DNA of 64,000 nucleotides from a virus. Taxonomy: Duplodnaviria; Heunggongvirae; Uroviricota; Caudoviricetes. The notes under the pieces were generated by a model, which searched no databases, had not been told where the DNA came from, and saw only the letters and a program-made list of their open reading frames with translations. The stretch lies in IMG/VR virus record IMGVR_UViG_3300013902_000267; one strand, written 5' to 3'. Position numbers and translations under genes: made by a program. Shown piece by piece: positions 33 through 62,266 of this stretch. The number at the start of each line of letters is the position of its first letter. Within the stretch, counting starts at the first letter, position 1.

Positions 33-103
33 TGGGATATAATGTAATGGTAACATGGAATACTCTGAATGTTCTCTTACTGGTTCGAATCCGGTTATCC
101 CAA
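33..103 (+). tRNA. tRNA-Gln (anticodon CUG)
   Basis: Manual cloverleaf fold. Acceptor TGGGATA/TATCCCA. D arm ATGT-AATGGTA-ACAT. Anticodon stem GAATA/TGTTC with loop CTCTGAA (U33, anticodon CTG, A37). T arm ACTGG-TTCGAAT-CCGGT. Discriminator A. Confidence 0.8.
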
Positions 104-222
104 CATATTCGTAATTTTTATTTTTTATTTTTTTTATTTTTAAAGGATTTATACATAAAGAGAAAAGGTTAATAAGATTTATTTCTTATTAACCTTTATT
201 ATTTTATTTCTTAAAATAAATA

Positions 223-1712: not shown

Positions 1713-2396
1713 ATGAAACATTACGATTCAATAGATAATATAAAATATAATACTGAATTAGTAGGAGAACAAGTATGGGCATTCAATAAATTAGATGGTC
1801 AGAATTTTTGTGCTAAATATTCTGTAAAGAAAAAGGAATTTACAAATTTTGGTTCAAGAAAATGTATGGTAGATGAGACATCAGAACAATTTGGTGATGC
1901 TGTACGTTATTTTAAATCACATAATTATTCATCTATATTAAGTAATATAGTTGAAAAACATAGAGTAAAGAAAGATATATTTTGTGGTGTTGATGAAATT
2001 ACATTTTTCTTCGAATGGTATGGAGAACATAGTTTTGCAGGATTTCATTCTGAAGAAGATAAAGATAATATGCATCTTGCATTAATTGATGTGTTCATCA
2101 AAAAGAAGGGATATATTGAACCAAAGATATATATGGATCTATTTAGAGATTGTGGAATAGAATTGCCGCAATTAGTTTATACGGGACCATTATCAAATGA
2201 TTTTATTAAAGATATTCAAGAAAATGACTGGACTGAACCAAATTGTAAATTTCCTTATGTAAAGGAAGGTGTTGTAATAAGGAGATCTACTATTTTAAAA
2301 GGACAACGAATGCCTAAAGTAAAAGTTAAAACAAAATGGTGGTTAACTGAATTACATAAAAGATATACAGAAGAAGAATGTAAATTATTAGAGTAA
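1713..2396 (+). CDS. minimal ATP-dependent polynucleotide (RNA) ligase-like nucleotidyltransferase
   Basis: Covalent nucleotidyltransferase motifs in the correct order: motif I NKLDGQN (KxDG), motif IV EGVVIRR, motif V KVKVKTK. Size 227 aa fits a stand-alone Rnl-type adenylyltransferase domain. Confidence 0.5.
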   Translation: MKHYDSIDNIKYNTELVGEQVWAFNKLDGQNFCAKYSVKKKEFTNFGSRKCMVDETSEQFGDAVRYFKSHNYSSILSNIVEKHRVKKDIFCGVDEITFFFEWYGEHSFAGFHSEEDKDNMHLALIDVFIKKKGYIEPKIYMDLFRDCGIELPQLVYTGPLSNDFIKDIQENDWTEPNCKFPYVKEGVVIRRSTILKGQRMPKVKVKTKWWLTELHKRYTEEECKLLE

Positions 2397-10232: not shown

Positions 10233-10270
10233 TCTTTTTAATAAATATATAAAATATAAAAGAAGTATTA

Positions 10271-40810: not shown

Positions 40811-41974
40811 TTATTGTTCGTCAATATAACTATTTGAATCATCATTATCAATATTTTCAGATTGTTCATCTTCAATATTAGTTATACTCTTTAATATATT
40901 ATCTTTATATTTTTTATTTATACATTTATTTAATATATATGGTTCCATAGTTTCCGATCTACTAAACATAAATCCATTTGATTCATATAAATTTGAATTC
41001 TTTTTACATAAAGCAGATATTCTAGAAAATGCAACACCTGTTATCTTTTCCGCATCTTTTAATTTATTACATTTATATAACAATTTTCCGTTTAAATTAA
41101 ATACATTTACTCCTTTTTGTGTTAATAATATATCTTTATTTTTATAATTTACACAATAATTATATATTTCATTAGTCCATTTTCTAGTTAATGTAGGTAA
41201 CTAATATTTTATTATATAATTTTCATAATAATATTTAAAAATAGTTCTTGCTTTCTTAGATGATATAATATAATAACCAAAATTTTTTGTTTTATCTTCT
41301 ATAAAAATATTTGATGTTTTATCCTATAATATTTCTTCAAATCTTTGTTTTATATATAATAGTGTTTCATATGTTCCTACACAACTTATATATAAACGTT
41401 TACTTTTATGTCTATTTTCATTATATACTCCTATAGAACCATCTCCATCTATTACACCTATAATAAAGCAATCCTTATATATAGTTTCTAATATTGGTGG
41501 TATATATACATTCGTTTTCTATTTAGTAATATTAAAATTTTTATATAAATCATTCACTATCTACTCAGATAAAATATGAAAACTTACATTTTTAAATTTT
41601 TTATTATTTAAAATATTATAACCATAATATAATTTATATGTTGATGATATATTATATTTCAACTATTTTAAAAAATTCTCATCTTTTATTGATAATTTTA
41701 TATTCAAATTTTTATTTGTTTTATCTATAGAACCATCGGCAGCTATAAACCCTGCATAGTAAGAATTTATCGGATTTATTAATGAAAAATAATTATCATT
41801 AACATTATAAATACGTTCTCCTTTAATATTTTTCTTTAGTTGTAAATTATATACCTTTTTCCAATATGTTAAATTCTTACAAATTTTACCGGTAATTTCT
41901 TTTGATGCAACCTATTCTGAAATATTTTTATTATTTGCATAATCTATAATTTCCTATAATATATTTTTATCCAT
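40811..41974 (-). CDS. double-motif LAGLIDADG homing endonuclease (387 aa), 7 in-frame TAG
   Basis: YYAGFIAADGSI and CFIIGVIDGDGSI motifs. Continuous frame from ATG 41974 through ORF-track fragment 40811..41083. The C-terminus duplicates the C-terminus of the upstream ligase gene. Confidence 0.7.
40860..40886. repeat. 27-nt direct repeat GATTGTTCATCTTCAATATTAGTTATA (copy 1; copy 2 at 42066-42092)
   Basis: Identical 27-mers encode ITNIEDEQS at the C-termini of both the LAGLIDADG gene and the RNA-ligase-like gene. Confidence 0.6.
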
Positions 41975-42043
41975 TTATTAAAAAATATTTTATATATTTA
42001 TATAAAATATGGAAGCATTTAAACTTAAATGCTTCCATAAATA

Positions 42044-43555
42044 TTAATTAGTTTCATTTTCTGATGATTGTTCATCTTCAATATTAGTTATACCTGCATC
42101 TAATTCTTTTTCTTCCTTATTAACAAAACGATAGCACTTCAATTTGAATGCACGAGGTATCATATCATCTATTTTAATTACAACACCTTCATGTGGAACT
42201 TTATTATTACATTCAGGTGATAACATTTCCATATAAAAATTCTTATCACTTGACATCTTATTCCAAAAATTTTCGTGCCAATGATTAGTTATATCAAGCT
42301 CAGGATACAAATCTTTAGCTTTACCATAATAATATTCAATTACAGGTGTTAATTCATGTTGAATACACCATACTTGTACTTCTCGTGGTGAAAATTCATG
42401 TACATCTCCATCAACATTTGTTAAAGTAATACGATATATCATTATCTTAAAATGCTTTCCATATGTATACTCTTCACCAGACTTTAAAGGTACACATCCA
42501 TAATCATATCCCTTTTGTATATAATTATTATTTGGAAGATAACCTACAATTTCTGCATAAATCATCATTCCCTTTATCATGTGTGGCTTTAATACATTAA
42601 ATGCTTCACCCCATATATCAAAATTATAGAATCCCTTATGATATACATTACCATTTTTTTCAGATTCCTTCATTATATACTGGTTTTTTATAACAGTTCT
42701 TGATGAATATAAATAATCATAATCATTAAATTCATAACCTGTTAAAAATTTCGCAATTTTCTGCTTTATAGTTAATTGTTTCTTACATAAAACATAACCA
42801 ACACAAAGAGAAGTACCGTGCCATTTAGAACTTATATGTATATAATCATTAGGTTGAACAACAAATGGAACCTTCTTAACAAGTGCAGTGTCGTAATGGA
42901 ACCTAAATTGTTCTGGTATAACTCTGTTAAATCTCTTTAACTTTCGTTGTCTTCTCTTATATCTAGATTGATCACCTCCAGTTTTATTTCTCTTTATAAA
43001 TATCTTTGGTATAAATTTCTTTGATAACCAAAATGATTTACCATTATGTTCAATAGTATCAAACCATGTTCCATCCTTTATATCATTCTCATTAACTTCT
43101 ATATTAAAATTATCTAATATAAAATTAAGAACTACTTGTAATTCTATCAAGAAACCATCTGATACACCATTAGGTAAAAATACTTTTTCAACTTCTCCAG
43201 TAGATGGATCAATTTTATCCATTGTTGCTCGTAGTCTAATGGACTTCACTCTACCATTATCATCAAATAACCCAGTTTTATTAGGATTACTATTCATTTC
43301 ATTTTTACGATATAAATTAGCATATCTTAAAAATTCAGGATTTATTTGTGTACTTGATGGAAAGAATACATATTTTCCTGGTTGTGAATCCTTACTTACT
43401 ATAACATTATAAATTGTATCTCCACCTATTCTACAACACTTTAACTTGTTAACTTCAGGATTAGGATGTGGAGAGAAATCCTCTTCCTTGATATAAATTA
43501 CACGTGAAACATAATTAGGGTGTAATTCACTTTCCTTCGACTTAATAAACTTCAT
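42044..43555 (-). CDS. RNA ligase-like nucleotidyltransferase with long N-terminal extension (503 aa)
   Basis: ISSKWHGTS (KxHGT, Rnl2-type motif I), HEGVVIKID (motif IV EGxVxK), FKLKC (motif V). Confidence 0.45.
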   Translation of the reverse strand: MKFIKSKESELHPNYVSRVIYIKEEDFSPHPNPEVNKLKCCRIGGDTIYNVIVSKDSQPGKYVFFPSSTQINPEFLRYANLYRKNEMNSNPNKTGLFDDNGRVKSIRLRATMDKIDPSTGEVEKVFLPNGVSDGFLIELQVVLNFILDNFNIEVNENDIKDGTWFDTIEHNGKSFWLSKKFIPKIFIKRNKTGGDQSRYKRRQRKLKRFNRVIPEQFRFHYDTALVKKVPFVVQPNDYIHISSKWHGTSLCVGYVLCKKQLTIKQKIAKFLTGYEFNDYDYLYSSRTVIKNQYIMKESEKNGNVYHKGFYNFDIWGEAFNVLKPHMIKGMMIYAEIVGYLPNNNYIQKGYDYGCVPLKSGEEYTYGKHFKIMIYRITLTNVDGDVHEFSPREVQVWCIQHELTPVIEYYYGKAKDLYPELDITNHWHENFWNKMSSDKNFYMEMLSPECNNKVPHEGVVIKIDDMIPRAFKLKCYRFVNKEEKELDAGITNIEDEQSSENETN

Positions 43556-43657
43556 ACTAGATTTAATTTTATTTTCCTATGTCATTCTTTAGTTCGAGTC
43601 TCCACTACTCACGTATCACCAGATTATTTTTTAATAGGAAAATAATCAAACCTATTA

Positions 43658-43930
43658 TTAATATTTAGAAAACTGTTCATTCAGAACAGATAATTCTTTT
43701 TCTTTCTTAAAAATTAGCTTATCTAGGAAATCATCCATCATTCTCATTTCATCTTGATTTAGAATAATGTCAATATATGGTTTTCCATAATGATATGTTT
43801 GATAATCACTTTTCATTATCCATTCAATATCATGCAACTTTTTTAATTCTTTACATGCGGATATAATACCTTTAGTCTTTAATATTCTTTCATGTAAAGA
43901 ATTAATTTTTTTTAAAGTATCTTCATTCAT
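43658..43930 (-). CDS. hypothetical protein (90 aa)
   Basis: Uninterrupted ORF. Confidence 0.45.
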   Translation of the reverse strand: MNEDTLKKINSLHERILKTKGIISACKELKKLHDIEWIMKSDYQTYHYGKPYIDIILNQDEMRMMDDFLDKLIFKKEKELSVLNEQFSKY

Positions 43931-43933
43931 AAT

Positions 43934-44425
43934 TTAAAATAGTTTAACGGACGCATTAGTATCCATTCTTTCCTTCATACCATTATTATAATAATCAGCC
44001 AAAATTTCAGCTTTAATTTTAGGTGACAATACTTTCCGTACTACATAATCATAATTAAAATTAAAGAATTCATTTATAGCTATTACCATTTCATATGCAG
44101 ATAATGTCTTCACCTCTGCTAATTTATTTTTCATGTAATAGAAGATTTTCCCTGTTTCTTCCTTAGGTATTTTTGGAACGACGAATGTAGATGTATCAAC
44201 TTTATATTGTTCTGCAAATGGAGATTCTATCCATATGCTATATAATTTTTCTGCTGTATCTTTCCTTTCATGCAACAAGACTATATCATCTGTCATCGCA
44301 TAATCATACTAATCTGCGACTAAAGGAGATACAGTCATTGTTTGACTTGAAAGATCTGCATTATAGTCTGAACTCGCAAAATACCCATCATTACTAAGCA
44401 TCTTCTATGTATTAATTCTTGCCAT
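43934..44425 (-). CDS. hypothetical protein (163 aa), 2 in-frame TAG in N-terminal extension
   Basis: ATG 44425: MARINT(Q)KMLSNDGYFASSDYNADLSSQTMTVSPLVAD(Q)YDYAMTDDIV..., continuous with ORF 43934..44296. Confidence 0.45.
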
Positions 44426-44491
44426 ATAATGTTTGATATTTTTTCTTTTACTATAATTATATGATAAAAATAGCAAATTGTTTATAATATT

Positions 44492-46000
44492 TTACATAGA
44501 AAATAAATCTTGTGCTTGTATTTGTGTTTCAGTTAATCCTAATTGCGGAGTACTCATAGAATCAGATGCACCGGGACGAATACCAACAGATGAAGAATAA
44601 TTATTTGAATTATTATGTTGGTAATTATTATCTCCTTTATGCTTATCTTTTACTAATCCATCCAATGAAACATTCTCAGGAATAATATTTTCCTCAAGAT
44701 TCTCTTCAATTCTTAAATATGTAGGATTAAAATCAAATTTCTTCTTATCTCCCATGTGTCCAGAATTACGTATTGCTACTGCTTTCAAATAATATGTATT
44801 ATCTACACGCATTAAAGATGACTGAATAATACCGAACAAACTATCAACAGTTGCGATAAGACCTCCAGATTCTGAAACGTTACTCATACCAATATCAGTA
44901 GAATCATATGCAGTTCTATTTGTCTGTGTTAATGATACAACACACCAATTATTTCTCTGAGCCATCGCACGAACATCCTCGCAGATAGATTTAATCTTTA
45001 AATATGTACTTTCAGAATTTGGATTCTTTGCGTCTTTCATAATATTAACATAATCAATGAAAATGTTCTTAAACTTAAATGGTTTATCTTCTGTAGATAA
45101 CTCTTCTTCTTGCTTAAGTAAGAATGACTCAATATCATAAACAGTTGCAGATGATGTAGGGAACTCTTCTATAATAAACTTACCTGGATTAATAAGTGAA
45201 TTCATATAAAATTCCTTCATTTTCTGCATCATAAGATTTGTGTCTGATGCATACTTATCATATTCTTCAATTGGAATATTAAAAAGATTTGAACCTATAC
45301 GTTGTGCTACAAGCTGATAAGCCATCTCCAATGTAATATATGCAGAATTCTCACCATTTCTTACAGAATTCGCACATAGGTTACAAAGCCACATAGATTT
45401 ACCAACTTTAGGTGACCCCATAAATACATTAAGAGTCTTATTTGCCCATCCGCCTTTCAAACATTGATCAACAAAATTATAACCTGTTTTCCTTGTTTCA
45501 AGTTCAGTTTGTTTATGATTAATTGGGTCAAAGAAATCATGTCCTTTAGAATTATTTAATGTAAAATTAGTTTCACTCTGAAATAATGATTTTATATGTT
45601 GTACAATTTCTGCACAATTTTCAAATGTAACTTCAGATTCTGTTGTCTTTACATATTCAATAACTCTTCGGAGACCTGTCATTAAATTCTACCATTCGCC
45701 AAATGCTACTGTATTCTGTTCCAACCATTCATCTGTATATTGACTAACCATATCACGAGTTTGCCATAATGTATGAATTTGATCTTCTGTTACTTTATCA
45801 TCTTTAGCTGCTAATCTAATAAGATCTATTGTTTGTTGCTCAGTTGGTTCTGCTCTAAAATCTAATATATGCGGTTTAACCACATCAAATATAATTTTTA
45901 ATGCAGGATTAGTAAAATATCTTCCTTTAAAAGACTATACAAGATTTAAATTCTTAATTATATAAAAGAATATGACGTTTTCAAGATACGTATTATTCAT
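44492..46000 (-). CDS. DnaB/gp4-like replicative DNA helicase (502 aa), 2 in-frame TAG
   Basis: ORF 45689..45883 ends in TAG and reads through into ORF 44492..45682. Walker A GSPKVGKS, then ITLEM (DnaB SLEM-like) RecA-fold. The N-terminal extension continues to ATG 46000 through another TAG. Confidence 0.6.
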
Positions 46001-46125
46001 AAATAAATTATTCTACCTTTGTTTTAATTTATAGTGAGTAAAAGTATTAAAGTTTATTAGCAATTCAAAAATTAAGAAAATTATATATAGTTTTGTAAAA
46101 CTATAAAAATTTCTCAATTTTTATA

Positions 46126-46938
46126 TCATTTTATTGGAATTTTTGATGTTTTTTCAAAGATTTTTCTATTGTTTTCATCATTAAGTATATACCCACTGTG
46201 AATAACAAATTTATCTCTATCAAACTCCCCATATTCATCTGATTTCATATGAACAGTTTCCTTATATACAAATCTTCCATATTTCTTTCCATCATCAAAT
46301 GTATTCCAATCAATATCAGTTGATTCTTTCAAAATATCTATAAGTTCATCTGCTTTCTTTGATGTACATTCCTTATGTGACAAATAAGTTCTTACTGTTT
46401 GTTGCTTGCTGTTTCTTATACAATCAAGTTGTCTATATAAGAACCATGTATAAACATCATTATATGATGGAACATTCCATGCTTTACAATCGAACTCATG
46501 TAATTTTATATTATTAATAATATCAATAAGTTCAGATTTACTGAATTGCTCTTTACATGTTCTATTAATTGCTTCAATAATCATTAATTGATTAAACTTA
46601 GATGTTGCCATTGATGCACATAGTGGTAATATTTTCTCCAATCTATAACCAAAAAATGAATCTGTTTCTGGTGTATCAAAATCCGTAATAACAAGAGATA
46701 TTTCATCTGACTGGACATATGCGAATTTACATCCTTGTATACATTCACATAAATATCTTGCGGTTTCATTCATAATATTAATGAATGTATCATCAAATGG
46801 TTTCTTGAAATATTTTTTAATGGTTGATGAAAATGATCTACCGTCTAACATAACCATTACATAACTATTTGGCATTAACTTATAATCTGTTAAACCACGA
46901 AGATATAGCATTCTATCTTCAATATTCTTAAATTTCAT
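46126..46938 (-). CDS. Thg1-like protein (tRNA-His guanylyltransferase family; 3'-5' polymerase)
   Basis: MKFKNIEDRMLYLRGLTDYKLMPNSYVMVMLDGRSFSSTIKKYFKKPFDDTFINIMNETARYL matches the Thg1 N-terminal signature (KFEYV..., vvRxDGxxFxxF, kPxD...LMn.aA). The start is probably the internal ATG 46938. Confidence 0.55.
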   Translation of the reverse strand: MKFKNIEDRMLYLRGLTDYKLMPNSYVMVMLDGRSFSSTIKKYFKKPFDDTFINIMNETARYLCECIQGCKFAYVQSDEISLVITDFDTPETDSFFGYRLEKILPLCASMATSKFNQLMIIEAINRTCKEQFSKSELIDIINNIKLHEFDCKAWNVPSYNDVYTWFLYRQLDCIRNSKQQTVRTYLSHKECTSKKADELIDILKESTDIDWNTFDDGKKYGRFVYKETVHMKSDEYGEFDRDKFVIHSGYILNDENNRKIFEKTSKIPIK

Positions 46939-47025
46939 AATTATACAAATATAATAAAAGGATATTATCAAATAAATCAAATATTTGGTAATATCCTCAT
47001 GTTATTAAAAATTAAATATTCATTA

Positions 47026-47262
47026 TTAATATACAAATTGAATCTTTGATTCAGCCATATTTGTGATACGCCATGAGAACATAGTACCACTCATTTGCTC
47101 AGTTACCTTGTGTTCACAATTTGTAACATTTGTAGCCTCAACAAGATGCACTTCCTTAATTTTCTTAGGCTTACCATTATCTGGATTTTCTCCATCAATA
47201 ACAACAGTACACATATAGAACTTATTGCCTTCTGATGGTTGCATTACTTTCATGTCTTCCAT
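47026..47262 (-). CDS. hypothetical protein (78 aa)
   Basis: Uninterrupted ORF. Confidence 0.45.
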   Translation of the reverse strand: MEDMKVMQPSEGNKFYMCTVVIDGENPDNGKPKKIKEVHLVEATNVTNCEHKVTEQMSGTMFSWRITNMAESKIQFVY

Positions 47263-47457
47263 AAATTAAACAATTAAATTTGATTTTTTACTTCTTGCTT
47301 ATCCTTCTTAGTTTTAGTTTTTAAATTAATTATTTTTAAAAACCTATGTTTCTTGTTTCATAGACACACTACTTTTTAGTATAGTTATTATTTATAACTT
47401 CTGTCATCCATAGTTAGTATCTCCACAAGCGTAAATTCGGTAAAACTCAACCCTATT

Positions 47458-47772
47458 TTAAACTATTAAATTTAATTTTTTCTCTTCTTGCTTATCATTT
47501 TTATTCTTCATATTCTTTCTACTTTCAAAAAGTTTCTTATCATATGGACTTAATTCCCTACAATTAGCACATATAAAAACTTTCAATGGAACTTGTGTAG
47601 TTTCTGAACCTTGACCAATAAGCATGCCAGGAACTTTCTTAAAAATAATACCAGGTATAAAAACCTCACATCCACAATTTGGACATACTTCTGAAGGATA
47701 ATCTAACGGATTTACCGCTGGCATATTTGCATTAGTACCAGCGGCATTTCCAAATAGTTTGCTATTTTCCAT
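47458..47772 (-). CDS. zinc-ribbon protein (104 aa)
   Basis: CPNCGC...CANC pair of CxxC motifs. Confidence 0.45.
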   Translation of the reverse strand: MENSKLFGNAAGTNANMPAVNPLDYPSEVCPNCGCEVFIPGIIFKKVPGMLIGQGSETTQVPLKVFICANCRELSPYDKKLFESRKNMKNKNDKQEEKKLNLIV

Positions 47773-48881
47773 TAGTCAACTTTATTTTCTTCTTTTTCTG
47801 CATCAGCTGCAGCTTCTTCAGCCTCACGACGTGCAATAACAGCATCACGTTCATCAGATGGTACATCTGACAAAATTACACGATTCTTCTCAATCTTATG
47901 TACATATACCTGTACATTTGCACCTGCAGGAATTTCATTATTTCTCATTGCCTCGCGAGTCTCATCCTTTACAAGTGTCTTATGCAACATACCTGTAATA
48001 AACTCGTCAAGCTCGACGAACACACCAAATGAGGTTGTACCTGTTACTTTACCCTCAAATACATGGTCCTTATCATTCTCCAACAAATCCTCAAGTTCAC
48101 GAAGCTTGACTGGAAGCATTGTTCTCAAGAACTTCTTACGTGATACAACAAAACCATAATTTGGATCATAAGATTCAATCATAACCTCAAACTTAGTACC
48201 AACCATGCTCTCAAAATCAGTTACACGGTTAGCTGCTGCCATTGAACCAGGCATAAATGCCTTAACCGTATTCATAATATCAACAACAAATCCACCCTTA
48301 TTAGTAGACAAAATTGTTGCGTAATATGCCTTAGACTTCTTGGTAATCTGTTCCTTCATCTCTCTCTCAAGAGTTTCAACATAACCATTCCAGATAGACG
48401 CTTTCTCAACATCACCCTCTGTAATCTTAGCATTCAAATCCATACCAAGAAGTTGTTCCTTAAACTTAGGGTCCTTCAATGCGGTTACAAACATATCCTT
48501 ATCCATTGTCTTATCATCACCGACATTGAACTGATTAAAGAACTGATGTTCCTTATTAAGATCAACGATAACATTGTTAGAACCACCATTAATTGTCAAC
48601 ATCAATGTATCATCATCAATAGGATCAATATCAGAAATATGCACAAGTGCATTCTTAATAAGTTCCTTACTACCAATTACATGAACATTTGCATATGCAT
48701 CATACAAATCCTGTGCATAAGATTCATGACTATAAACTTTCTCGTTATTCTTTGTCTTAATATTCTTATTTACCTTAAGTGAAGTACCATTCCATCCATC
48801 ATCATATGGACTCCAATCAAATGAACCCGGTGTTGGTTCGCCCCATTCATAACGTTGGGTCAACTCATTAAATTTCGCCAT
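47772..48881 (-). CDS. RNA-binding protein with two S1 domains
   Basis: GFVVDIMNTVKAFMPGS and GKVTGTTSFGVFVELDEFITGMLH S1-fold signatures. Acidic C-terminal tail. Confidence 0.5.
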   Translation of the reverse strand: MAKFNELTQRYEWGEPTPGSFDWSPYDDGWNGTSLKVNKNIKTKNNEKVYSHESYAQDLYDAYANVHVIGSKELIKNALVHISDIDPIDDDTLMLTINGGSNNVIVDLNKEHQFFNQFNVGDDKTMDKDMFVTALKDPKFKEQLLGMDLNAKITEGDVEKASIWNGYVETLEREMKEQITKKSKAYYATILSTNKGGFVVDIMNTVKAFMPGSMAAANRVTDFESMVGTKFEVMIESYDPNYGFVVSRKKFLRTMLPVKLRELEDLLENDKDHVFEGKVTGTTSFGVFVELDEFITGMLHKTLVKDETREAMRNNEIPAGANVQVYVHKIEKNRVILSDVPSDERDAVIARREAEEAAADAEKEENKVD

Positions 48882-48950
48882 TAAATATTCGTTTTTAAAA
48901 AATTAAACTTAAAATTATCAAAAATTAAAAATTATTAAATATTAAATTAA

Positions 48951-49829
48951 TTACTGTTGTACTGTTGAAAGAACAGTAAATGATGTTTGATCAGTTGATT
49001 CAATTCTTACCTTTTGCTTTGAATCATTAGGTAATGTAATAATAATACTCTCTGCATCACCTTTAAGATTTACTGCTGTAAAGAAATTACTTCTGTAAAT
49101 AGGTATTGCATTTTCTGCACCTGTACCATCTTTCAAGAAACCAAGCAAATAATCATAAGATTCATTTGTATCATCATACGCATAAAGTGCCCATTTGCCT
49201 GTACCTTCATCAATCTTTGTATAGAACTTAATAATATCTTTCTTTGCATCTGTAACAAAAATAGAAGAAATATTAGTAAGATTCTTCAATACATTCATTG
49301 AAATCTCAAATGACATAGGATTTGCAATAACATTAATTCTATCAAAGAAAAGTTCATCTGATACTTGTTCAAACTCAGATATATTGCAATCCTTTACCTT
49401 CATTGTATTTGTACGAGATTTAAGTCTAATAGACTGTGCATGGAACTCATCTCCTACATGTCCCTTATAAACATCAAAATCTACATTCAATTGAAAATCT
49501 GTATCCTTGAAAATATCGATAACGGAAATAAATCGTGGAAGAATCATAAAGATACCAATCTTAATTCTTACATTATATTTCTCATTCCATTCATCAAGAG
49601 AATATGCAACATTATCATTATCTCTGATATTCAAAATTTCCAATCCAGCATTTTCAAAAGAAATCTTTGCATATTTAACTACAGTATGATCTGCAGTAAA
49701 ACCCTTTGAAACAAAGCATTGTTCTTTCAAATCACATTCTATGAGAAGTGAACTTTGGATTTCCTTAAAGGCTTTCAACCATGTAGAAAATCCTGCAGTT
49801 GTTCCTTTATTCTTAAATACTAAATTCAT
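48951..49829 (-). CDS. hypothetical protein (292 aa)
   Basis: Uninterrupted ORF preceded by a 300-nt AT-rich leader. Confidence 0.45.
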   Translation of the reverse strand: MNLVFKNKGTTAGFSTWLKAFKEIQSSLLIECDLKEQCFVSKGFTADHTVVKYAKISFENAGLEILNIRDNDNVAYSLDEWNEKYNVRIKIGIFMILPRFISVIDIFKDTDFQLNVDFDVYKGHVGDEFHAQSIRLKSRTNTMKVKDCNISEFEQVSDELFFDRINVIANPMSFEISMNVLKNLTNISSIFVTDAKKDIIKFYTKIDEGTGKWALYAYDDTNESYDYLLGFLKDGTGAENAIPIYRSNFFTAVNLKGDAESIIITLPNDSKQKVRIESTDQTSFTVLSTVQQ

Positions 49830-50134
49830 TATTAAATTATGTTAAAATTAAACGTTTATAATTATTAGATATTTAACTTAATAACAACATATACAAACTT
49901 TATAATATATGTGAAGTTAACCTAAGAAACTATATTATAATATAGAAGATAATTATCTAAATCTTATCTTATCTTTTTTTTAAAAATATAAATTAATTTA
50001 AATTCTATATGCATAATTTATAAACTAAATTCTTCCAATGACTTAAATTTATAAATACATAATGTATATAAAATAAATATATTCATATTTTAATATTTTA
50101 TTTATTATATTGATTAACTTATAAAAAGTTTATA

Positions 50135-51073
50135 TTAAATTCTTGAAAAATTTTTAATAATTGAATTTATACGTTTTGTATGTTTTAATTGTTGTTGTGT
50201 AGTTGGCCATTTAGTATATCCTCTGCTAAACCATGTATGAACAGCAATTAAATTTGTATCATAAAATTCATTTTTAATATCATTGCTATATATCGCTGAT
50301 GTTAATCCCGATAAATCAAATGTACAATTATTTTTTACAAAATCTGAATCATATAAATCTGTACCAAACAAATAATATATAGGTGTATCAGATAAAATTA
50401 CTAATGCTTGCTACAATATATAATATGGTTCAAAATTAGGTTCTTCTTCATCTTTATAACTATATGGAATTTGATGGGGTTCAATTTTATTATCAGGATC
50501 ATCTCTTACTGTTTTACAATAAGGTGTCTCATGATTTGGTAAATCAACTCTTGTTTCTCGAAATATCTTTGCATTAGAAATCATTTTCATTGATTCTCCA
50601 TTCATATACTTATATAAATCTTTATCTTTATTGTTTATTAATTTATTGATAAATTCTTTATATAAAGTATTAGGATTTTTCTCAAATTCGTTTGATATAT
50701 ATGTAATTATATTATTAAAAGAAATATTTTTATCTCTTAATAATTTAATATTCCAAAAACTTAAAAAAGTATTAATCATAAAACGACTATGATTCCTATG
50801 ACAAAATACCCCACCATCTTGAGGACCTGCTATACAACAACCACTTTGTACAAAATTCTTAAATTCTTTTATTAAAGATTCAAAATCATTAATAAAACAA
50901 TCCTCATCTATATAAATTACATAATCAAAATTTTTATTAGATAACATATAACTAAACATTAATAAAAATGCATCTAACCCATAAAATGGCTTGTTATCTT
51001 TTATACCTGGAATAACCCAAAAATTTTGAATAGGTATATATTCTATATATGTCTTTAATGACGGTATTAACAA
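50135..51073 (-). CDS. hypothetical protein, possible glycosyltransferase-like (312 aa), TAG read-through
   Basis: ORF 50411..51073 ends in TAG (50411-50413) and continues in frame into ORF 50135..50371. YIDEDCF DxD-like motif only. Confidence 0.4.
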
Positions 51074-51209
51074 TGAACTAGGTAAACATATTGAATTTGT
51101 TACAAAGCATACTTTATTCTATGATAACCATGTTTTAATCTCTACTATATTATCCATTTAAATAAAATTAAATTATTGTATATATTTTACTTTAAATTAA
51201 TAATAAAGT

Positions 51210-51518
51210 TTACAATGTTGATATATTAAAGCCACAATAACTCAATAAAATTACTATACGGATAAAATCTTGCATTTTAACATTTTCAAAATCTTTAACT
51301 TGCTCAAGATGTATCTTTAATAATTTTATATCTAATGGTTTATTTTCCTTATATAGTTTATATACATAATCATAACATATTTCAAAAAGTTCTTTTTCAC
51401 TTTTAGGCATATCACCATTAAGAATAGTATTCTTCATTTCTAAAGAATAATGGTCAAAGTCCATTTTCTCAAGGGACTTTGACCATTCATTAAAATCTTG
51501 TTTATTTGTTGTGTTCAT
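51210..51518 (-). CDS. hypothetical protein (102 aa)
   Basis: Uninterrupted ORF. Confidence 0.45.
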   Translation of the reverse strand: MNTTNKQDFNEWSKSLEKMDFDHYSLEMKNTILNGDMPKSEKELFEICYDYVYKLYKENKPLDIKLLKIHLEQVKDFENVKMQDFIRIVILLSYCGFNISTL

Positions 51519-52227
51519 AATACTTTCTATACTCTTTGTATAATTTATCTATAATCAATTGGTTATCTAAATTTTCAATATGAATTTCATTTACCATTGC
51601 ACATAATTTCCATAATTCATATTGATTAATACCAGATTTTTCATAATCATGATACCATGTAGTTTCAGGAAACATCCATCCATCATCCTCGCCAATACCA
51701 AATATATGAATATCATTATGTAATTTATCTATAATTAATGATACACCACCATATGATTGACAATGACTATTATATGTAAAATGGTAAAGTCTTATAGAAG
51801 CTTCATCATAAAACCCTTTATCATAACAACCAAATGAATCCATCATATTACCTAAATAACACGGATCATAATCATATTCATATTTAACTTCTGCTAAATC
51901 ATTATACCAACGTGGTTGTCGATTTTTAATAACACCTATTTGAATAAGTTTATCTTCAATATCCTTATTATAAGGCCAATATTGCCATAAACAATTGCAT
52001 CCATAATGAGTTAATTCAGCAAATTTATATATATCATTCTGAATACATTCAAAGAATGGTGCATATTGCGTTTTATCTATATTATTTTCTTCAAAATATT
52101 TAAGATCATAACCACAACAACTACCATCTGCATCGGCAAGTAAATCTTCTTTCTGTTTATCAGATAATTCAGTTTTATTAAATATATATGGTAACCATTC
52201 AGAGCCTTTATTATAATCTAGAATCAT
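51502..52227 (-). CDS. hypothetical protein (241 aa)
   Basis: Uninterrupted ORF, Cys/Tyr/Trp-rich. Confidence 0.45.
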   Translation of the reverse strand: MILDYNKGSEWLPYIFNKTELSDKQKEDLLADADGSCCGYDLKYFEENNIDKTQYAPFFECIQNDIYKFAELTHYGCNCLWQYWPYNKDIEDKLIQIGVIKNRQPRWYNDLAEVKYEYDYDPCYLGNMMDSFGCYDKGFYDEASIRLYHFTYNSHCQSYGGVSLIIDKLHNDIHIFGIGEDDGWMFPETTWYHDYEKSGINQYELWKLCAMVNEIHIENLDNQLIIDKLYKEYRKYYEHNK

Positions 52228-52478
52228 ATGGTACCTCCTTTCTTTATTAATATAGGTTTATAATAATCCTGAAAAAATTCAGGACATGCTAAAGGATTAA
52301 ATTCATTAGCTTTACGTAAATCTATATTTTCCCTTACATTTTTACAAAAAGGTTTAAGTACAGAAATTATATCATCTTCAAATATCTTTTCGCCTGTATT
52401 AATATCAACTAAACCAGTCCATGCAACATCTGATCTTTCAGATACCCATTGATTATTTTTATTTAGCCATGTTCTCAT
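52224..52478 (-). CDS. hypothetical protein (84 aa)
   Basis: Uninterrupted ORF. Confidence 0.45.
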   Translation of the reverse strand: MRTWLNKNNQWVSERSDVAWTGLVDINTGEKIFEDDIISVLKPFCKNVRENIDLRKANEFNPLACPEFFQDYYKPILIKKGGTI

Positions 52479-52600
52479 TGTATAATTATCTTTTAGTTTT
52501 ACATTTAATTATACAAGATATTGAATAGAACAATAAATATATATATTCTATCCAATATCAGGCAGCCAGTTTCATTTATAGTTTGAAACAAACTTTTTAT

Positions 52601-52738
52601 TTATCGTACATCACCAGTAAAAATTGCCCATATAAACTGAAGTACCATTCCGATAACTCCAAATACTACAGGAATAATTACACATGCAAGTGCAAATACA
52701 GCAATCGCTATGATGATACCAAGTAAAAACATTATCAT
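52601..52738 (-). CDS. small hydrophobic membrane peptide (45 aa), absent from the ORF track
   Basis: MIMFLLGIIIAIAVFALACVIIPVVFGVIGMVLQFIWAIFTGDVR*, preceded by a degenerate promoter motif. Confidence 0.35.
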   Translation of the reverse strand: MIMFLLGIIIAIAVFALACVIIPVVFGVIGMVLQFIWAIFTGDVR

Positions 52739-52777
52739 AATCTTTATATTTAAATTGTTAATATTTATGTTTATTAT

Positions 52778-52800
52778 TTACATTACAAAGATACATAATA
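52778..52800 (-). promoter_or_regulatory. degenerate copy of the conserved promoter motif
   Basis: ATTATGTATCTTTGTAATGTAAA on the minus strand, about 40 nt upstream of start 52738. Confidence 0.3.
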
Positions 52801-52834
52801 TTTTCCTAAATAAAAAATATATTACCTAAAATTA

Positions 52835-53368
52835 TTAAGAATTTAAATAATTATGAAATGAACCATCATCAGAATCTCCAATAAGATTGTTCAATACATG
52901 CCAATACTCAAGATAACGCTTTGCTTTCTCCATATCCTGTGTTTCTTTCTCCTTATGGTCAGATCTCCAAATATACTTAAATGAATTCAACTTACAGAAA
53001 TCCATTGTTGCTTGTTTTCCAAATGTCTGAAGCATAGCTTCTATACATTGTAAGCCATTACCACCAGCGCCATAATGATTTGGATGTTCAACAACATTCA
53101 AATTCTGTGTACTAAAAATAGGATTTAATTTTGTCTTATGTAATTGTAAATGTGCAGGTTCATCCTTAAATACAATCTTCTCATAATTCAACGGTTCTCT
53201 ATTCTATTCAGCTACATTATCACTAATAGGTTCACCACATTTCTCGTCATTATCTGTTGCAACTTCATCGGTTCTATTAGAAACAAATACAATATCTTTA
53301 TCATCCTTTGTACGTGTAGGTTCACCATATACAGGTTCCTATGTACGAGTTTCCTTATTATAACTCAT
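52835..53368 (-). CDS. DUF3310-family phage protein (177 aa), 2 in-frame TAG in N-terminal extension
   Basis: HPNHYGAGGNGLQCIEAM...KYIWRSDHKEKETQDMEKAKRYLEYW fits the DUF3310 pattern. The true start is ATG 53368 (MSYNKETRT(Q)EPVYGEP...VAE(Q)NREPLNYEK...). Confidence 0.5.
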
Positions 53369-53413
53369 ATTATATCAATTAGTTTTCATTTATAATTATA
53401 CAGTAAAAATAAA

Positions 53414-53884
53414 TCATTGTTTAATAGATTTTAACGAAATTAATGTAGTTCCAGATAAATCTATTAAATCTTTTTCTTTTGATGAAAAATCTAATATATG
53501 TTGTGTATGAGTTTCTTTAATTATACCATCGTTTTCCTATATAGGTTCAGGTTCAATTAAATAAGATAACTATTCATTATTATCTTTTTTATGTATCATA
53601 TATAATGTATTCTGTTCTAACGCATCTTCTATTGAAAGTTCTTTAGTTGAACCATCAGCAAAATATGTTACGCTTGGTATTGGTGCATCTAAATCATAAT
53701 ACGTCTAAATAATATCATATTTAGACGTATCTATATCATTTATACTTTTAATATTAGTTAAATCATCTTCATCATTATTTTCATCTACAATATCTGACGT
53801 AATATCATTAACTCCTGTAAATTTTACTAATAGACAAAGAATAACAAAAAAACCTATACTTATTGATATTACTGGATCTATCAT
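53414..53884 (-). CDS. N-terminally membrane-anchored acidic protein (156 aa), 3 in-frame TAG, absent from the ORF track
   Basis: MIDPVISISIGFFVILCLLVKF..., then an acidic region. Continuous frame from ATG 53884 to TGA 53414-53416. Confidence 0.45.
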
Positions 53885-53913
53885 AATCTCTTATTTTATT
53901 AAATTAATAATTA

Positions 53914-54147
53914 TTATTTACTCTCAAAATTAATAGTTGATACATCTTCCACTTTTTCTTTTAAACTATCAACTGTTATTGTATGTGTATTCTGTTGCTC
54001 TTGTAATGAGTCTACAATGAATTCCTGTGTTTGCTTAATATGCTTTAGCTTCTCTTCATAATCAATACGGAGACGATTTGCAATTACAAGCATCATTATA
54101 AATCCTAATACAAATAAAACAATAAATACTGTTACTATTATATTCAT
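53914..54147 (-). CDS. small membrane protein (77 aa)
   Basis: N-terminal TM helix. Confidence 0.45.
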   Translation of the reverse strand: MNIIVTVFIVLFVLGFIMMLVIANRLRIDYEEKLKHIKQTQEFIVDSLQEQQNTHTITVDSLKEKVEDVSTINFESK

Positions 54148-54264
54148 ATTATTTTCTAATTAAAATTTTACTTTTTATTTATAGTATATTAAATCAATAA
54201 AGTTTATATATTAAAATAAAAAATGGATAGATAGTTAAACGAAAAAACTATCTATCCATCATAA

Positions 54265-55302
54265 TTATGCTTGATACGAATACTTGTCAAACAATGATTC
54301 AATATTAGAGGGATGCACAGCATTTATGCCGATTTCATTGCATTTTTTCAATGTATCATGGAAATCATCTATAAGACATACATCCTTAACATTCCACTTC
54401 ATTTTATGAGCAAACTGCTCAATAAAAACGTGCTTATAATTTTTATTTCCGACAAACATTCGGTTCTCAACAGGAATCTCTGGGAAATATTTATCAAGCC
54501 ATTCATTCTTCTCATTCCACGCTATTGAATTAGCACATGCAGTCACAATATAAACATTCTTCATGTCATAATGTTTCTTAACAAAATCAATGATATGTTT
54601 AACAGGCTTCAAATTTTTAAATAGTTCGCTACTTACAAAATCTGAATTTCCGTTAATATCAAGTTTTGCCTTGCCATAACAAGCTAATGTACCATCCATG
54701 TCAAGAAGTAAATACTTATTGGTAAAATAATCAACGCGAATGAATTCATCTACCAATGGGATGTACTTATTCTTACATGCTTCAATACGTAAATTTTTCT
54801 TATAAATATCTTCAATTGGAACTTTACGAGTTCTTCCTTGAAGTCTATTTATACAAACTTCTACAGGAGTATCAAAGAATATACAAGTAATCTTATCTAC
54901 ATTTTTATTTCTTAAATAATCTATAATACTAAGATTATAATGATTATTAATTCCACCGCCGTCAAGAATAACATTACAATTAATCTTTGAACTATCTGCA
55001 ATAGCAAAAATTATTTTTCGTGTTATTTGAACCGACTCTTCATGAACAACTTCCGGATGTTCATCAGTATAACCTTTTAACAATGGTTTAATTTCATCAG
55101 CAGAAATTACTATTGTTTCATTTATACAAAGATTATCTTCAATTGTCTGAATAATTTTATCTAAATTACATTCATCAAATGGTTTATCTAAAATAGATGT
55201 TAACCATTCAATGAGATGCAAAATATTTGGATAATTCTCTTGAAGATATGTACTTTTACCAGATGCAGGCAAACCGAGGAAGTACGAGAACTTACTGATC
55301 AT
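54265..55302 (-). CDS. P-loop kinase fused to HAD phosphatase (polynucleotide kinase-phosphatase-like)
   Basis: N-terminal Walker A GLPASGKST, as in T4 Pnk GCPGSGKST or NadR-type kinases. C-terminal LLLDMDGTLA is the HAD motif I DxDGT. Domain order matches T4 PseT. Confidence 0.55.
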   Translation of the reverse strand: MISKFSYFLGLPASGKSTYLQENYPNILHLIEWLTSILDKPFDECNLDKIIQTIEDNLCINETIVISADEIKPLLKGYTDEHPEVVHEESVQITRKIIFAIADSSKINCNVILDGGGINNHYNLSIIDYLRNKNVDKITCIFFDTPVEVCINRLQGRTRKVPIEDIYKKNLRIEACKNKYIPLVDEFIRVDYFTNKYLLLDMDGTLACYGKAKLDINGNSDFVSSELFKNLKPVKHIIDFVKKHYDMKNVYIVTACANSIAWNEKNEWLDKYFPEIPVENRMFVGNKNYKHVFIEQFAHKMKWNVKDVCLIDDFHDTLKKCNEIGINAVHPSNIESLFDKYSYQA

Positions 55303-55327
55303 AACTAAAATATAATTTAATTTTTAA

Positions 55328-56911
55328 TTAGTCAACAGTTCCATCAAGAAGTTTATGAACTGCATCTTGACGAGTCTTTCGGATTTCAGCAAGTGTAAAC
55401 TCTCTTACTAACTTACCATCTTCAAAAACAGTCTTCAATTCATTCTTATCTGATGCTTCCTCTTCAGGCGTTACACGATCAACTGGTACATACTTACCAT
55501 TACCATCTTTTACAACCATAAGAAGTCCACGATGTGATTTCTTTGGCATACCGCATACTGTTTTAGGATCCTTATAAATTTCTATAGGTTTGCCATTAAC
55601 TTTACACCATGTAGACTTACAGGCTATGCCTAAAGAATCTCTGGATCGTACATTATAAGTAAAGCTTCCTATACCTTCAATAAGGTTAGTTGCTGCGAAA
55701 CCCTTATCTTCAAGTTGAGAATATGTATCCTTTTGGCGTTTCATATTAATTGAGTCTCCATAAAGAAGTCCAATATGTGGATCAAGAATTTTATATCCTT
55801 TTTCATTAAATGTTCCACCGAACGTATTCCAAAGAAATTCATAAGAACCCATCTTTACAAATGGATCTTCTGCTTCCGGATCACCACAAATAATTTTAAC
55901 AGGATCACCACTATCAGGACGAATTACTACACGCCCATTACGAGACATAATTTGTTCTTTATACTTAGGAACAATCTTTGTCAAGAAATACCAATAATCA
56001 TAACCATCTGCAACAATTGAAATAATACCATCTGGAAATTCATCAAGCATATTCTTAAAATAAACTTCATCATTTGGCTTACCTGTTTCATCTGTTGCAT
56101 TAGAGCACTCAATAGAATGTTCAGTAGCTGGAACAGTTGCAGCTATCAATTCTTTTTTAGGATCTGCATTATAATAATACTCAATCATCTTAATTGCTGG
56201 AACTGTTTCAGAACCACAAAAAGAAGTAAGATGTGCCATACCAGAAACAATAGATGCTTCAAATGAACTCATTCCTCTCATAGAGAAATCATGACATAGA
56301 AATGCAAGATTAGACATATCGTTAGGATTATAAAAACCAGTTTTCATAGCATGTCTAACAAGTTCACGTTTAAATACATCAGCTGTTGTTGCAGAAGTAA
56401 TTGGAAGCCAAAGGACATTTGAAGTCAAAGACTCCAAATAATTTGTGAGCCAAGCAAAATCAGGATGTGTATTTGTGATTGTTAAAATAGGGCATCCGAT
56501 TGGACAATATGAACCTTCAGGAAGTGCCTTAATACGAATAGGAAGATAACCAAGTTTATGCAATGCAATAATATGATCAACCCCTACTTTCTTTGCAACT
56601 GCTTCTCCTAGAAATGTAGTTGTCAAATCTGTATAAGTTTTTCGTACAGTATCTTCATCAAGATTAAAGAAATAATTATTAAATGTATTAATAAGATACT
56701 TCTTAATAAAATACTGAATACCAAACACAACTGCTCCCTCTGTAGCTTCCGGAAAATATTTATTACTACGAGGAGTAAAGTTACTGAAAAGTTGCGTCAT
56801 TCCCTTAGGGTACATACAGTGATGACCAAGCTTGTAGCCATCTGTCATAAGCATTGCATTAAGAAGTATGTCTTCTACCAATACATGCTGTGAATCTTTT
56901 ACGTTTGTCAT
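55328..56911 (-). CDS. nadV: nicotinamide phosphoribosyltransferase (NAMPT/NadV family)
   Basis: 527 aa with TDGYKLGHH, HDFSMRG, RPDSGD and GYDYWY-type blocks colinear with NAMPT. Confidence 0.75.
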   Translation of the reverse strand: MTNVKDSQHVLVEDILLNAMLMTDGYKLGHHCMYPKGMTQLFSNFTPRSNKYFPEATEGAVVFGIQYFIKKYLINTFNNYFFNLDEDTVRKTYTDLTTTFLGEAVAKKVGVDHIIALHKLGYLPIRIKALPEGSYCPIGCPILTITNTHPDFAWLTNYLESLTSNVLWLPITSATTADVFKRELVRHAMKTGFYNPNDMSNLAFLCHDFSMRGMSSFEASIVSGMAHLTSFCGSETVPAIKMIEYYYNADPKKELIAATVPATEHSIECSNATDETGKPNDEVYFKNMLDEFPDGIISIVADGYDYWYFLTKIVPKYKEQIMSRNGRVVIRPDSGDPVKIICGDPEAEDPFVKMGSYEFLWNTFGGTFNEKGYKILDPHIGLLYGDSINMKRQKDTYSQLEDKGFAATNLIEGIGSFTYNVRSRDSLGIACKSTWCKVNGKPIEIYKDPKTVCGMPKKSHRGLLMVVKDGNGKYVPVDRVTPEEEASDKNELKTVFEDGKLVREFTLAEIRKTRQDAVHKLLDGTVD

Positions 56912-59043: not shown

Positions 59044-59147
59044 ATTTTATTTTAAATAAAAAAGAGATATAACAAAATAATCTGTTATACCTCTTATAAA
59101 ATATATCTTAAAATAATAAAAAATTACATAATATATTGTAAAAGCAT

Positions 59148-61911: not shown

Positions 61912-62091
61912 ATTATTTTTGATATAAAAAAGAAAACATAAAGAAATATCAATTTTTATAGTAAAAACAATTAAAATTCTATAGAAATCTTATTAAATTT
62001 TATAATATTTTTTAAACAAGTATAGATAAGAAAAGTCTACCATGACTTACATCATAATAGACTTATAGTACATCTTTAAAAATAATATCTG

Positions 62092-62187
62092 TGGATATAG
62101 ATGGACTCGAACCACCATGTATCTGCCCTAGAATTATGATACAAACTAACATCATATTAGTCGCGTTTACCATTTCGCCATATATCC
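62092..62187 (-). tRNA. class II (long variable arm) tRNA, 95 nt, tentatively Ser(UGA)-like
   Basis: Acceptor GGATATA/TATATCC. D arm GCG(A)-AATGGTAA-(A)CGC. Anticodon stem ACTAA/TTAGT with loop TATGATG (anticodon TGA but A at position 33). Variable arm TGTATC-14 nt-GATACA. T arm GGTGG-TTCGAGT-CCATC. Alternative folds are possible. Confidence 0.5.
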
Positions 62188-62193
62188 ATATAG

Positions 62194-62266
62194 CAGGCCT
62201 GATGAGATTCGAACTCACAACAACATGATTAAAATTCGTGTGCTCTACCAATTGAGCTACAGGCCC
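62194..62266 (-). tRNA. tRNA-Lys (anticodon UUU)
   Basis: Acceptor GGGCCTG/CAGGCCT. D arm GCTC-AATTGGTA-GAGC. Anticodon stem CACGA/TCATG (one mismatch) with loop ATTTTAA. T arm GTGAG-TTCGAAT-CTCAT. Discriminator G. Confidence 0.7.

Follow-up and report, generated by a model that had tools for sequence, protein, structure and literature searches.

The window analysed here, 64,000 nucleotides of the virus record IMGVR_UViG_3300013902_000267, encodes a P-loop kinase fused to a HAD phosphatase (kinase-phosphatase), with the architecture of the T4 polynucleotide kinase-phosphatase (T4 Pnkp). The near-constant neighbours of this gene among related loci encode a Namat-like enzyme of the NAMPT family and an Adps-like enzyme of the Prs type, both reminiscent of the NAD+ reconstitution system NARP1, and not an RNA ligase. 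An original prediction made from the letters of the window had grouped this protein with a Thg1-like 3'-5' polymerase, RNA-ligase-like proteins and a second HAD phosphatase in one counter-defence or tRNA-maintenance module, and all of the open reading frames (ORFs) that it named were found with their predicted positions and strands. We hold, with moderate confidence, that the window carries not one such trio but two counter-defence functions within one long leftward block, an RNA-end repair kit and a NARP1-type system. The window is DNA of the Prevotella megaphage Lak-B7 (MK250026.1): its positions 42000-56000 are 100% identical to positions 181511-195511 of that record, the same part is 99.3-99.8% identical to other Lak-B genomes, and the region from 42.1 to 53.5 kb shares about 80% identity with Lak-A and Lak-C.

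Profile and structure searches agreed on the assignment of the kinase-phosphatase (Table 1), in which an N-terminal kinase of the polynucleotide kinase (PNK) clade, with Walker A motif, catalytic Asp, a basic residue at +3 and a lid Arg, is followed by a C-terminal HAD domain of the DxDxT type. The catalytic residues are kept in both halves: the P-loop G15-K16-S17 (K15/S16 in T4 Pnkp), D69, K72 and R157 (T4 D35, R38 and R126) in the kinase, and D201/D203 and D312-D313 (T4 D165/D167 and D277-D278) in the phosphatase. By sequence the HAD half matched NT5C (1.7e-7) and T5-dNMPase-like profiles, and it had no match to HAD_PNKP (PF25109) at E values up to 0.01. AvrRxo1, a PNK-fold kinase that phosphorylates NAD, was found among the structural neighbours of the protein. 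This neighbour and the nucleotidase-like HAD half both speak for an NAD-linked role.

In the window, the kinase-phosphatase gene lies directly downstream of the Namat-like gene, with a gap of 25 nt. The neighbourhoods of its homologues were read in 14 loci, with full-length homologues of 30-58% identity and one kinase-only form (L014, 31%). A NAMPT-like gene was present at 3 kb or less from the homologue in 13 of the 14 (L001, L003, L005, L006, L007, L011, L014, L064, L065, L066, L067, cyanophage Lbo-JY46 and the Lak clade), the single exception being L013, for which just 979 nt of upstream sequence is present, and 10 of the 13 also encode an Adps-like Prs, at a distance of about 6 kb or less from the NAMPT-like gene. 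The loci come from gut, marine (TARA) and other metagenomes and from a cultured cyanophage with a cyanobacterial host; the order of the genes is shuffled among them, their flanks differ, and the ORFs often overlap (by 23 nt in L003 and 4 nt in L065). Within 10 kb of the more distant PNK relatives, about 45 in number (L015-L063), no NAMPT-like gene was present. Among deposited phage genomes the kinase-phosphatase was found only in Lak phages and Lbo-JY46, and Prs-like genes occur in 1478 records. The kinase-phosphatase is linked far more tightly to Namat-like and Adps-like genes than to any ligase, and its substrate may therefore not be the tRNA of the original prediction.

NARP1 is the pair of Adps and Namat, with which NAD+ is rebuilt from ADP-ribose (ADPR) and nicotinamide (bioRxiv 10.1101/2024.02.11.579819), and Namat is marked by the motif GS-X-Phi-X-Phi-X-Phi-TRD of its selectivity-clamp helix (PMC12774641). 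Two accessories of NARP1 operons have been described, the Macro phosphatase Adpp, which converts ADPR-1''P into ADPR, and the glycosidase RyDEP, which acts on cyclic ADPR signals. The corresponding motif of the window protein, GSFTYNVRSRD, shares with the consensus the aromatic residues of X1 and X2, the T and the N, and the relatives from L007 and L014 carry the motif exactly. A search with tblastn found no Adps-like Prs gene within the 64-kb window.

The analysis shows enzyme family and fold, conservation of catalytic residues, gene positions and neighbourhood statistics, whereas all of the substrates and the order of the steps are our inference. The NARP1-type system would consist of the Namat-like enzyme of the window and an Adps-like Prs encoded elsewhere in the same genome, with the kinase-phosphatase as their companion. 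The latter most likely turns phosphorylated or otherwise non-canonical products of NAD+ breakdown into substrates of Adps and Namat, for example ADP-ribose-1''-phosphate, an ADPR cyclic phosphate or 2'-phospho-ADPR, in analogy with Adpp in the NARP1-AP system, and it may heal RNA ends too. We therefore advance, as a tentative proposal for which our confidence falls somewhat short of even, that the kinase-phosphatase is an undescribed accessory enzyme of NARP1 ('NARP1-KP'), the phosphatase half of which, and possibly also the kinase half, feeds ADPR or another input to Adps and Namat, with ADPR-1''-phosphate (from RES-type NADases), ADPR cyclic phosphate and 2'-phospho-ADPR (from NADP) as candidate substrates. 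If so, large phages could escape NAD+-depleting defences that beat plain NARP1, by means of a three-gene system that extends NARP1 as Adpp and RyDEP did. A polynucleotide-kinase fold would then have been recruited to the repair of nucleotide metabolites, and the co-occurrence of RNA-repair and NAD+ genes in these phages could be accounted for in this way. A Pnkp-fold enzyme is in any case a near-constant neighbour of Adps-like and Namat-like genes in large phages from gut and marine sources and from cyanobacterial hosts. The literature search turned up no publication that connects NARP1 or phage NAMPT with an enzyme resembling polynucleotide kinases.

Several observations weigh against an NAD-linked role. 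The Namat-like motif of the window differs from the published one in three residues, with a V where the third X is expected, an R in place of Phi3 and an S in place of T, and the Adps-like gene of Lak-B7 is not adjacent, being located at 419730-420539 of the record, about 223 kb away. True polynucleotide and tRNA kinases (CthPnk, T4 Pnk, PSTK and Pnkp1) are the nearest matches of the kinase half, and the D-x-x-K/R pair is kept in it, which favours a polynucleotide substrate; in T4 Pnk the D-x-x-R pair contacts the 5'-OH and the next phosphate. In 4 of the 13 loci (L005, L065, L066 and L067), the Prs, kinase-phosphatase and NAMPT genes have an Rnl5-like ligase or RlaP gene about 6 kb away or less. 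Genes of RNA repair and of NARP1 thus occur together themselves, and the adjacency of kinase-phosphatase and Namat-like genes could reflect a shared counter-defence island and not a shared chemistry.

In the explanation of the original prediction, the kinase-phosphatase, the Thg1-like protein and one or both ligases would form one tRNA repair pathway directed against anticodon nucleases, with the NAMPT gene a mere counter-defence neighbour. Pnkp-like healing would then yield 5'-PO4 and 3'-OH ends, the Thg1-like protein would mend 5' ends, and the ligase would seal. The T4 Pnkp architecture, with its catalytic residues, agrees with such a pathway, as do the match of the kinase half to polynucleotide and tRNA kinases, the nearby Rnl5-like ligase (with or without RlaP) in 4 of 13 loci and published precedents for linkage of Thg1, PNK and ligase (PMC2904730) and for a PNK-HAD class in jumbo-phage RNA repair (PMC7824862). 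A further precedent is the viral contig L060 (IMGVR_UViG_3300020050_014246), in which a tight operon at 7142-10049 encodes an Rnl5-like ligase (444 aa), RlaP and a PNK with a HAD_PNKP domain; this is the textbook ligase-RlaP-PNK arrangement, which the Lak window lacks. Against a single pathway, stretches with unrelated genes separate the kinase-phosphatase gene of the window from the Thg1-like gene (7.3 kb) and from the large ligase gene (10.7 kb), its orthologous group follows Namat-like and Adps-like genes more faithfully than any ligase, and its HAD domain fails the PF25109 model, which the PNK of the L060 operon matches at 6e-49. We regard the one-pathway explanation as possible but doubtful, and we place the putative NAD-linked role of the kinase-phosphatase slightly ahead of an RNA-linked one.

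Two further observations concern the neighbourhoods of the kinase-phosphatase. In L066 a gene for a NADAR protein (ADP-ribose processing) at 10155-10691 lies 1.3 kb downstream of it. The NAMPT-like gene was called as two ORFs in L005 (10431-11866) and in Lak-A1 (genes 192 and 194, Table S7 of PMC6784885), where another gene stands between the two, which suggests an interruption by an endonuclease, an intein or a frameshift. As for other NAD+ or ADPR links, a NARP2-type pair acting through a nicotinamide mononucleotide (NMN) adenylyltransferase was considered and rejected, the HIGH-family enzyme at 4584-5075 scoring as CoaD (TIGR01510, 132 bits with a cut-off of 103) and not as NMN adenylyltransferase; and Tpt1/KptA was discarded as a connection between RNA repair and NAD+ or ADPR in Lak, no Lak genome being among the 98 phage records that match Tpt1.

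Table 1. Features of the 64-kb window considered in this work, with the matches on which each assignment is based.
Feature	Coordinates	Strand	Basis
tRNA-Gln (CTG), possible substrate class	33..104	+	ARAGORN; Rfam 57.9 bits
Putative minimal PF09414 ligase, 227 aa, nucleotidyltransferase domain only	1713..2396	+	PF09414 2.1e-8; phrog_548 2.9e-12
LAGLIDADG-type homing-endonuclease ORF	40811-41974	-	7 in-frame TAGs; directly downstream of the Rnl5-like ligase gene
Predicted Rnl5-type (NgrRnl/DraRnl-like) RNA ligase, 503 aa	42044..43555	-	PF09414; phrog_968; Foldseek
Bacterial-type Thg1-like protein, predicted 3'-5' nucleotidyltransferase, 270 aa	46126..46938	-	PF04446; phrog_4717; PDB 4kgk
S1-like (ribosomal protein S1)	47772-48881	-	S1 domain 1.2e-14; rpsA models up to 2e-21
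P-loop kinase and HAD (DxDxT) phosphatase fusion, T4 Pnkp architecture, 345 aa	54265..55302	-	Profile and structure searches
NAMPT-family enzyme with Namat-like signature, 527 aa	55328..56911	-	PF04095 3.6e-31; PF18127 4.2e-10; NF006629 490 bits; phrog_448 3e-176
Sigma-70 family factor	59124-60137	-	Region 2, 1.3e-11
Stand-alone HAD phosphatase, HAD_SAK_2 ('Swiss Army Knife' RNA-repair family), 185 aa	60232..60789	-	PF18143 4.7e-18
Third tRNA-like gene, 96 nt	62092..62187	-	Rfam RF00005 45.3 bits; missed by ARAGORN
tRNA-Lys (TTT), possible substrate class	62193..62266	-	ARAGORN; Rfam 63.3 bits

The predicted location of the three core genes (large ligase, Thg1-like and kinase-phosphatase) in one leftward block was correct as to direction. 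They lie in a co-directional stretch of roughly 42 kb (19.5-62 kb), which the GC skew shows as one long leftward run between about 20 and 62 kb, in a window of 22-32% G+C. Gaps of 2.6 kb and 7.3 kb filled by unrelated genes separate the three, DnaB and two small ORFs between the large ligase and the Thg1-like gene, and the S1-like gene (RP-S1 in the Lak-A1 annotation table) with about ten ORFs of unknown function between the Thg1-like and kinase-phosphatase genes. ORFs of unknown function located between the core genes (43658-43930, 43934-44476, 47026-47262, 47458-47772, 48951-49829, 50135-51157 and 51502-52227) were scanned with Pfam and PHROG, and no RlaP, Macro, 2H, RtcB or CCA-adding enzyme was detected among them. 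A distance of 3.3 kb, which includes the sigma-70 factor gene, separates the HAD_SAK_2 gene from the Namat-like gene downstream of it, and the small ligase gene is 40 kb from the other repair genes on the opposite strand. The RNA-repair genes are thus not one module, but are scattered among genes for replication (DnaB), translation (S1-like), a sigma factor and proteins of unknown function.

All gene models were verified with TAG read as Gln (code 15), a usage already published for Lak phages (PMC6784885); ORF lists made with table 11 break up many of the neighbouring genes. Many long ORFs of the window appear only once TAG is read through, such as a 1029-aa ORF at 16336-19425 (+) with 19 in-frame TAGs, and the DnaB gene at 44492-46117 (-) needs three TAG read-throughs to gain its N-terminal domain. 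The five enzyme genes, the Namat-like gene and the S1-like gene contain no in-frame TAG, which is compatible with their translation before, or independently of, recoding; as TAG-free and TAG-containing genes alternate along one strand, no conclusion on the timing of translation is drawn.

With the kinase-phosphatase assigned to the NAD-linked system, the RNA-end repair kit would comprise the dispersed Thg1-like 3'-5' polymerase, a nick-sealing Rnl5-type ligase, the minimal PF09414 ligase and the SAK-type HAD phosphatase. In the scheme that we favour, host ribonucleases would cut or trim tRNAs, either those of the host or the roughly 31 of the phage; phosphatase and kinase activities would regenerate 3'-OH and 5'-PO4 termini; the Thg1-like protein would refill lost 5' nucleotides of the acceptor stem with the 3' strand as template; and the ligases would then close nicks held by the tRNA structure.

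The large ligase scored at the border of PF09414 (27.1 bits, cut-off 27) and clearly with phrog_968 (1.6e-23). It belongs to a family of >2000 database relatives, and 30 homologues are invariant at K244-x-H-G, E335, H455-E-G-x-V-x-K461 and K471-x-K473 (motifs I, III, IV and V). Its profile reached only the N-terminal domain of NgrRnl in the PDB (E about 0.09; positions 32-119 aligned to NgrRnl 23-105), and the AlphaFold model (pLDDT 79.8) matched NgrRnl over its whole length in Foldseek (1.8e-11; TM 0.55-0.60 on target), followed by T4 Rnl2 and TbREL1 at about 1e-6, with DNA ligases at E >0.01. In the model an OB-like N-terminal domain precedes the nucleotidyltransferase domain, with no C-terminal domain beyond it. 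By its modelled fold, then, the protein appears to be an Rnl5-type RNA ligase and not a DNA ligase, in line with the predicted ligase activity on RNA.

The small KxDG ligase was also recovered as predicted. Its homologues keep K26-L-D-G, E101, E185-G-V-V and K204-x-K206, and the one in Lak_Megaphage_Sonny is labelled 'RNA ligase' by one database. Neither the protein alone nor its profile matched the PDB by sequence, and we classify it as a putative minimal PF09414 ligase, which may act on RNA or on DNA. Both ligases match PF09414 (the Rnl2/Rnl5 type) and neither matches PF09511 (RNA_lig_T4_1, the T4 Rnl1 family) at E values up to 0.01; the set is therefore not the classic T4 pair of Pnk and Rnl1. 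Genes beside the small ligase at 2838-5938 (+) encode a HisG-like ATP phosphoribosyltransferase, a Ham1/RdgB ITPase, the CoaD-like HIGH nucleotidyltransferase and a PurC-like protein.

The second HAD phosphatase, also present as predicted, scored 66.3 bits with PF18143 (cut-off 27.5) and 1.7e-24 with phrog_1818, and its translation shows the DxDG motif near the N-terminus (FLDIDGVLN). In the NARP1-like locus of L014 (421-11212), the kinase-only form and a HAD_SAK_2 phosphatase are encoded by two consecutive genes, in that order.

The Thg1-like assignment was upheld by PF04446 (3.2e-25; 89 bits, cut-off 29.2), by phrog_4717 ('tRNA-His guanylyltransferase', 2.1e-54) and by the 'Thg1-like' structure PDB 4kgk (1.3e-25 over the 224 residues 5-228). 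Translation is taken to begin at the ATG at 46938, given that a homologue from L037, a viral contig described below, opens with the same MKF(K/N)N motif. The palm carboxylates D32 (in MLDGRSF) and D78-E79 (in QSDEIS) align with IDGAHF and QSDEIS of 4kgk, and the segment CHINNLYN of the yeast-type structure 3wbz aligns with CIRNSKQQ. A HINNLYN-type motif serves anticodon recognition in tRNA-His-specific Thg1. Yeast and human Thg1 matched at only 1e-5 to 1e-7, compared with 1.3e-25 for the bacterial Thg1-like protein (TLP), and the window protein is therefore predicted to be of the bacterial TLP type and not the eukaryote-type, tRNA-His-specific Thg1.

The surroundings of Thg1-like genes were read from a small sample, a scan of viral contigs yielding only six loci, with a two-sequence alignment and uninformative N-terminal patterns. 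A compact RNA-repair cluster was found in the unrelated 32-kb viral contig L037 (IMGVR_UViG_3300029305_006109), where positions 940-10459 hold, within 10 kb, a small PF09414 ligase (61% identity), Tpt1/KptA (9.7e-38), a Thg1-like protein (52%) and a 163-aa PNK-type kinase, with a terminase gene between the last two. This cluster supports the view that the Thg1-like protein of the window, like its small ligase, takes part in RNA repair. Other contexts could be taken to mean that the Thg1-like protein serves the replication machinery, acting for instance on the 5' ends of RNA primers, and not tRNA: the stop of its gene is 8 nt upstream of the DnaB start in the window, a homologue in L071 lies 1.3 kb from an SSB gene, and another in L073 directly follows an RNase H gene, with no RNA-repair genes among the neighbours in L071 and L073. 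These are three contexts only, all from phage genomes of high gene density, the setting in L037 is plainly one of RNA repair, and characterised members of the Thg1 family all act on 5' ends of tRNA-like RNA (PMC2904730), which makes a replication role very unlikely.

At least two tRNA genes had been predicted in the window; ARAGORN found two and Rfam added a third, the 96-nt tRNA-like gene directly downstream of tRNA-Lys, with a variable arm of 25 nt and the atypical anticodon loop UAUGAUG (A at position 33). A code-15 'ORF' at 62063-62557 that overlaps both this gene and tRNA-Lys is probably spurious. The tRNA-His gene of Lak-B7 (record 422521-422594; 5522-5595 in L075), the first of a cluster of eight tRNA genes about 2 kb downstream of the Adps-like gene, encodes G-1 opposite C73 and has a bulged U in the 3' acceptor strand, and Rfam aligns only its positions 8-63. 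As G-1 is encoded, addition of a 5' G by the Thg1-like enzyme is not strictly needed; repair of this tRNA after mis-processing is possible.

These genes bear on another explanation, in which the enzymes perform housekeeping maturation of phage tRNAs, the Thg1-like protein keeping G-1 on tRNA-His and the kinase-phosphatase and ligases joining tRNA exons. The Lak authors annotate THG1 for G addition and report tRNA introns, including one in Tyr-GTA of B genomes (PMC6784885), the irregular acceptor stem of tRNA-His, with its C73 and bulged U, might be mis-cleaved by RNase P, and fungal and plant tRNA splicing uses heal-and-seal enzymes (PMC10946426). We nevertheless judge this explanation improbable, given that G-1 is gene-encoded as in bacteria, that the Thg1-like protein is without a HINNLYN-type motif, that no splicing endonuclease was identified and no Tpt1 was detectable in any Lak genome, and that the Lak tRNA introns have no Rfam match.

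Elsewhere in the leftward block, the region 19468-40082 (-) holds genes of host-physiology type, encoding a DHH-like phosphoesterase, two calcineurin-like phosphoesterases (29039-29758 and 38203-38982), TelA, a Band7/SPFH protein and a transporter-like protein of the CNNM/CBS kind. Judged by eye from the translation only, the product of 32780-34816 (-) looks like an HSP90-like ATPase, and translations alone also point to apparent fragments of ribonucleotide reductase split by endonuclease-like ORFs between 22.9 and 28.9 kb.

The repair inventory of Lak-B7 was predicted correctly and is largely known already. A tRNA repair role for Thg1, linked to PNK, RNA ligase and Macro proteins, was proposed in 2010, large DNA viruses included (PMC2904730); the jumbo-phage RNA-repair kits described in 2021 include Rnl1/Rnl2, PNK-HAD, SAK-type HAD, RlaP, a CCA-adding enzyme and sporadic Thg1 (PMC7824862); and the Lak supplement lists THG1, rpsA, rnlB, cca, PTH2, NAMPT and prsA, its authors noting a possible repair of broken tRNAs by the RNA ligase and the addition of G to tRNA-His by an enzyme (PMC6784885). 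A toolkit broader than that of T4, as the original prediction had it, is not new. What is new is the assignment of the large ligase to the Rnl5 type and of the kinase-phosphatase to the Pnkp fold, together with the linkage to NARP1; the annotations that were retrieved from the Lak supplement did not include the Rnl5-type ligase, the Pnkp-fold kinase-phosphatase or the SAK-type HAD, and an association of the PNK-HAD subgroup with NARP1 or NAMPT is mentioned in neither PMC2904730 nor PMC7824862.

Compared with those two published systems, Lak shares Thg1, PNK-HAD, SAK-type HAD and Rnl2-like ligases, and the 5'-phosphate made by PNK would be used by Thg1 and ligase alike; unlike them, its genes are dispersed, a compact version being found in L037. 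Like T4, which counters PrrC with Pnkp and Rnl1/Rnl2, Lak encodes an N-terminal kinase fused to a C-terminal HAD phosphatase and an ATP-type ligase of the Rnl2/Rnl5 superfamily. It differs in having no Rnl1-type ligase, in a HAD half that resembles NT5C and T5-dNMPase instead of HAD_PNKP, in a kinase-phosphatase placed beside Namat-like and Adps-like genes and not ligases, and in repair genes that are not mutually adjacent. The large ligase resembles the Rnl5 enzymes DraRnl and NgrRnl in its N-terminal OB-like module and C-terminal adenylyltransferase domain, whereas it is about 160 residues longer, with a low-confidence linker (185-210) and inserts, shares only 12-14% identity with them and is a member of a large phage family of its own. 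Bacterial TLPs (4kgk) are the closest sequence match of the Lak Thg1-like protein and have in common with it the palm carboxylates and the lack of the yeast-type anticodon-recognition motif; the Lak protein has an insert of roughly 20 residues relative to 4kgk, is phage-encoded, and its gene lies directly upstream of a DnaB helicase gene. Finally, as in NARP1 and NARP1-AP, relatives of the Lak locus have a cluster of three genes, one Prs-like, one for a NAMPT-like protein that carries the Namat motif and a third that includes a phosphatase domain, and in L005 and L065 these follow the order Prs, third gene, NAMPT of the Adps-Adpp-Namat operon, with the difference from NARP1-AP that the third gene encodes a kinase-HAD fusion and not a Macro domain, and that in Lak-B7 the Adps-like gene is set far apart from the other two.

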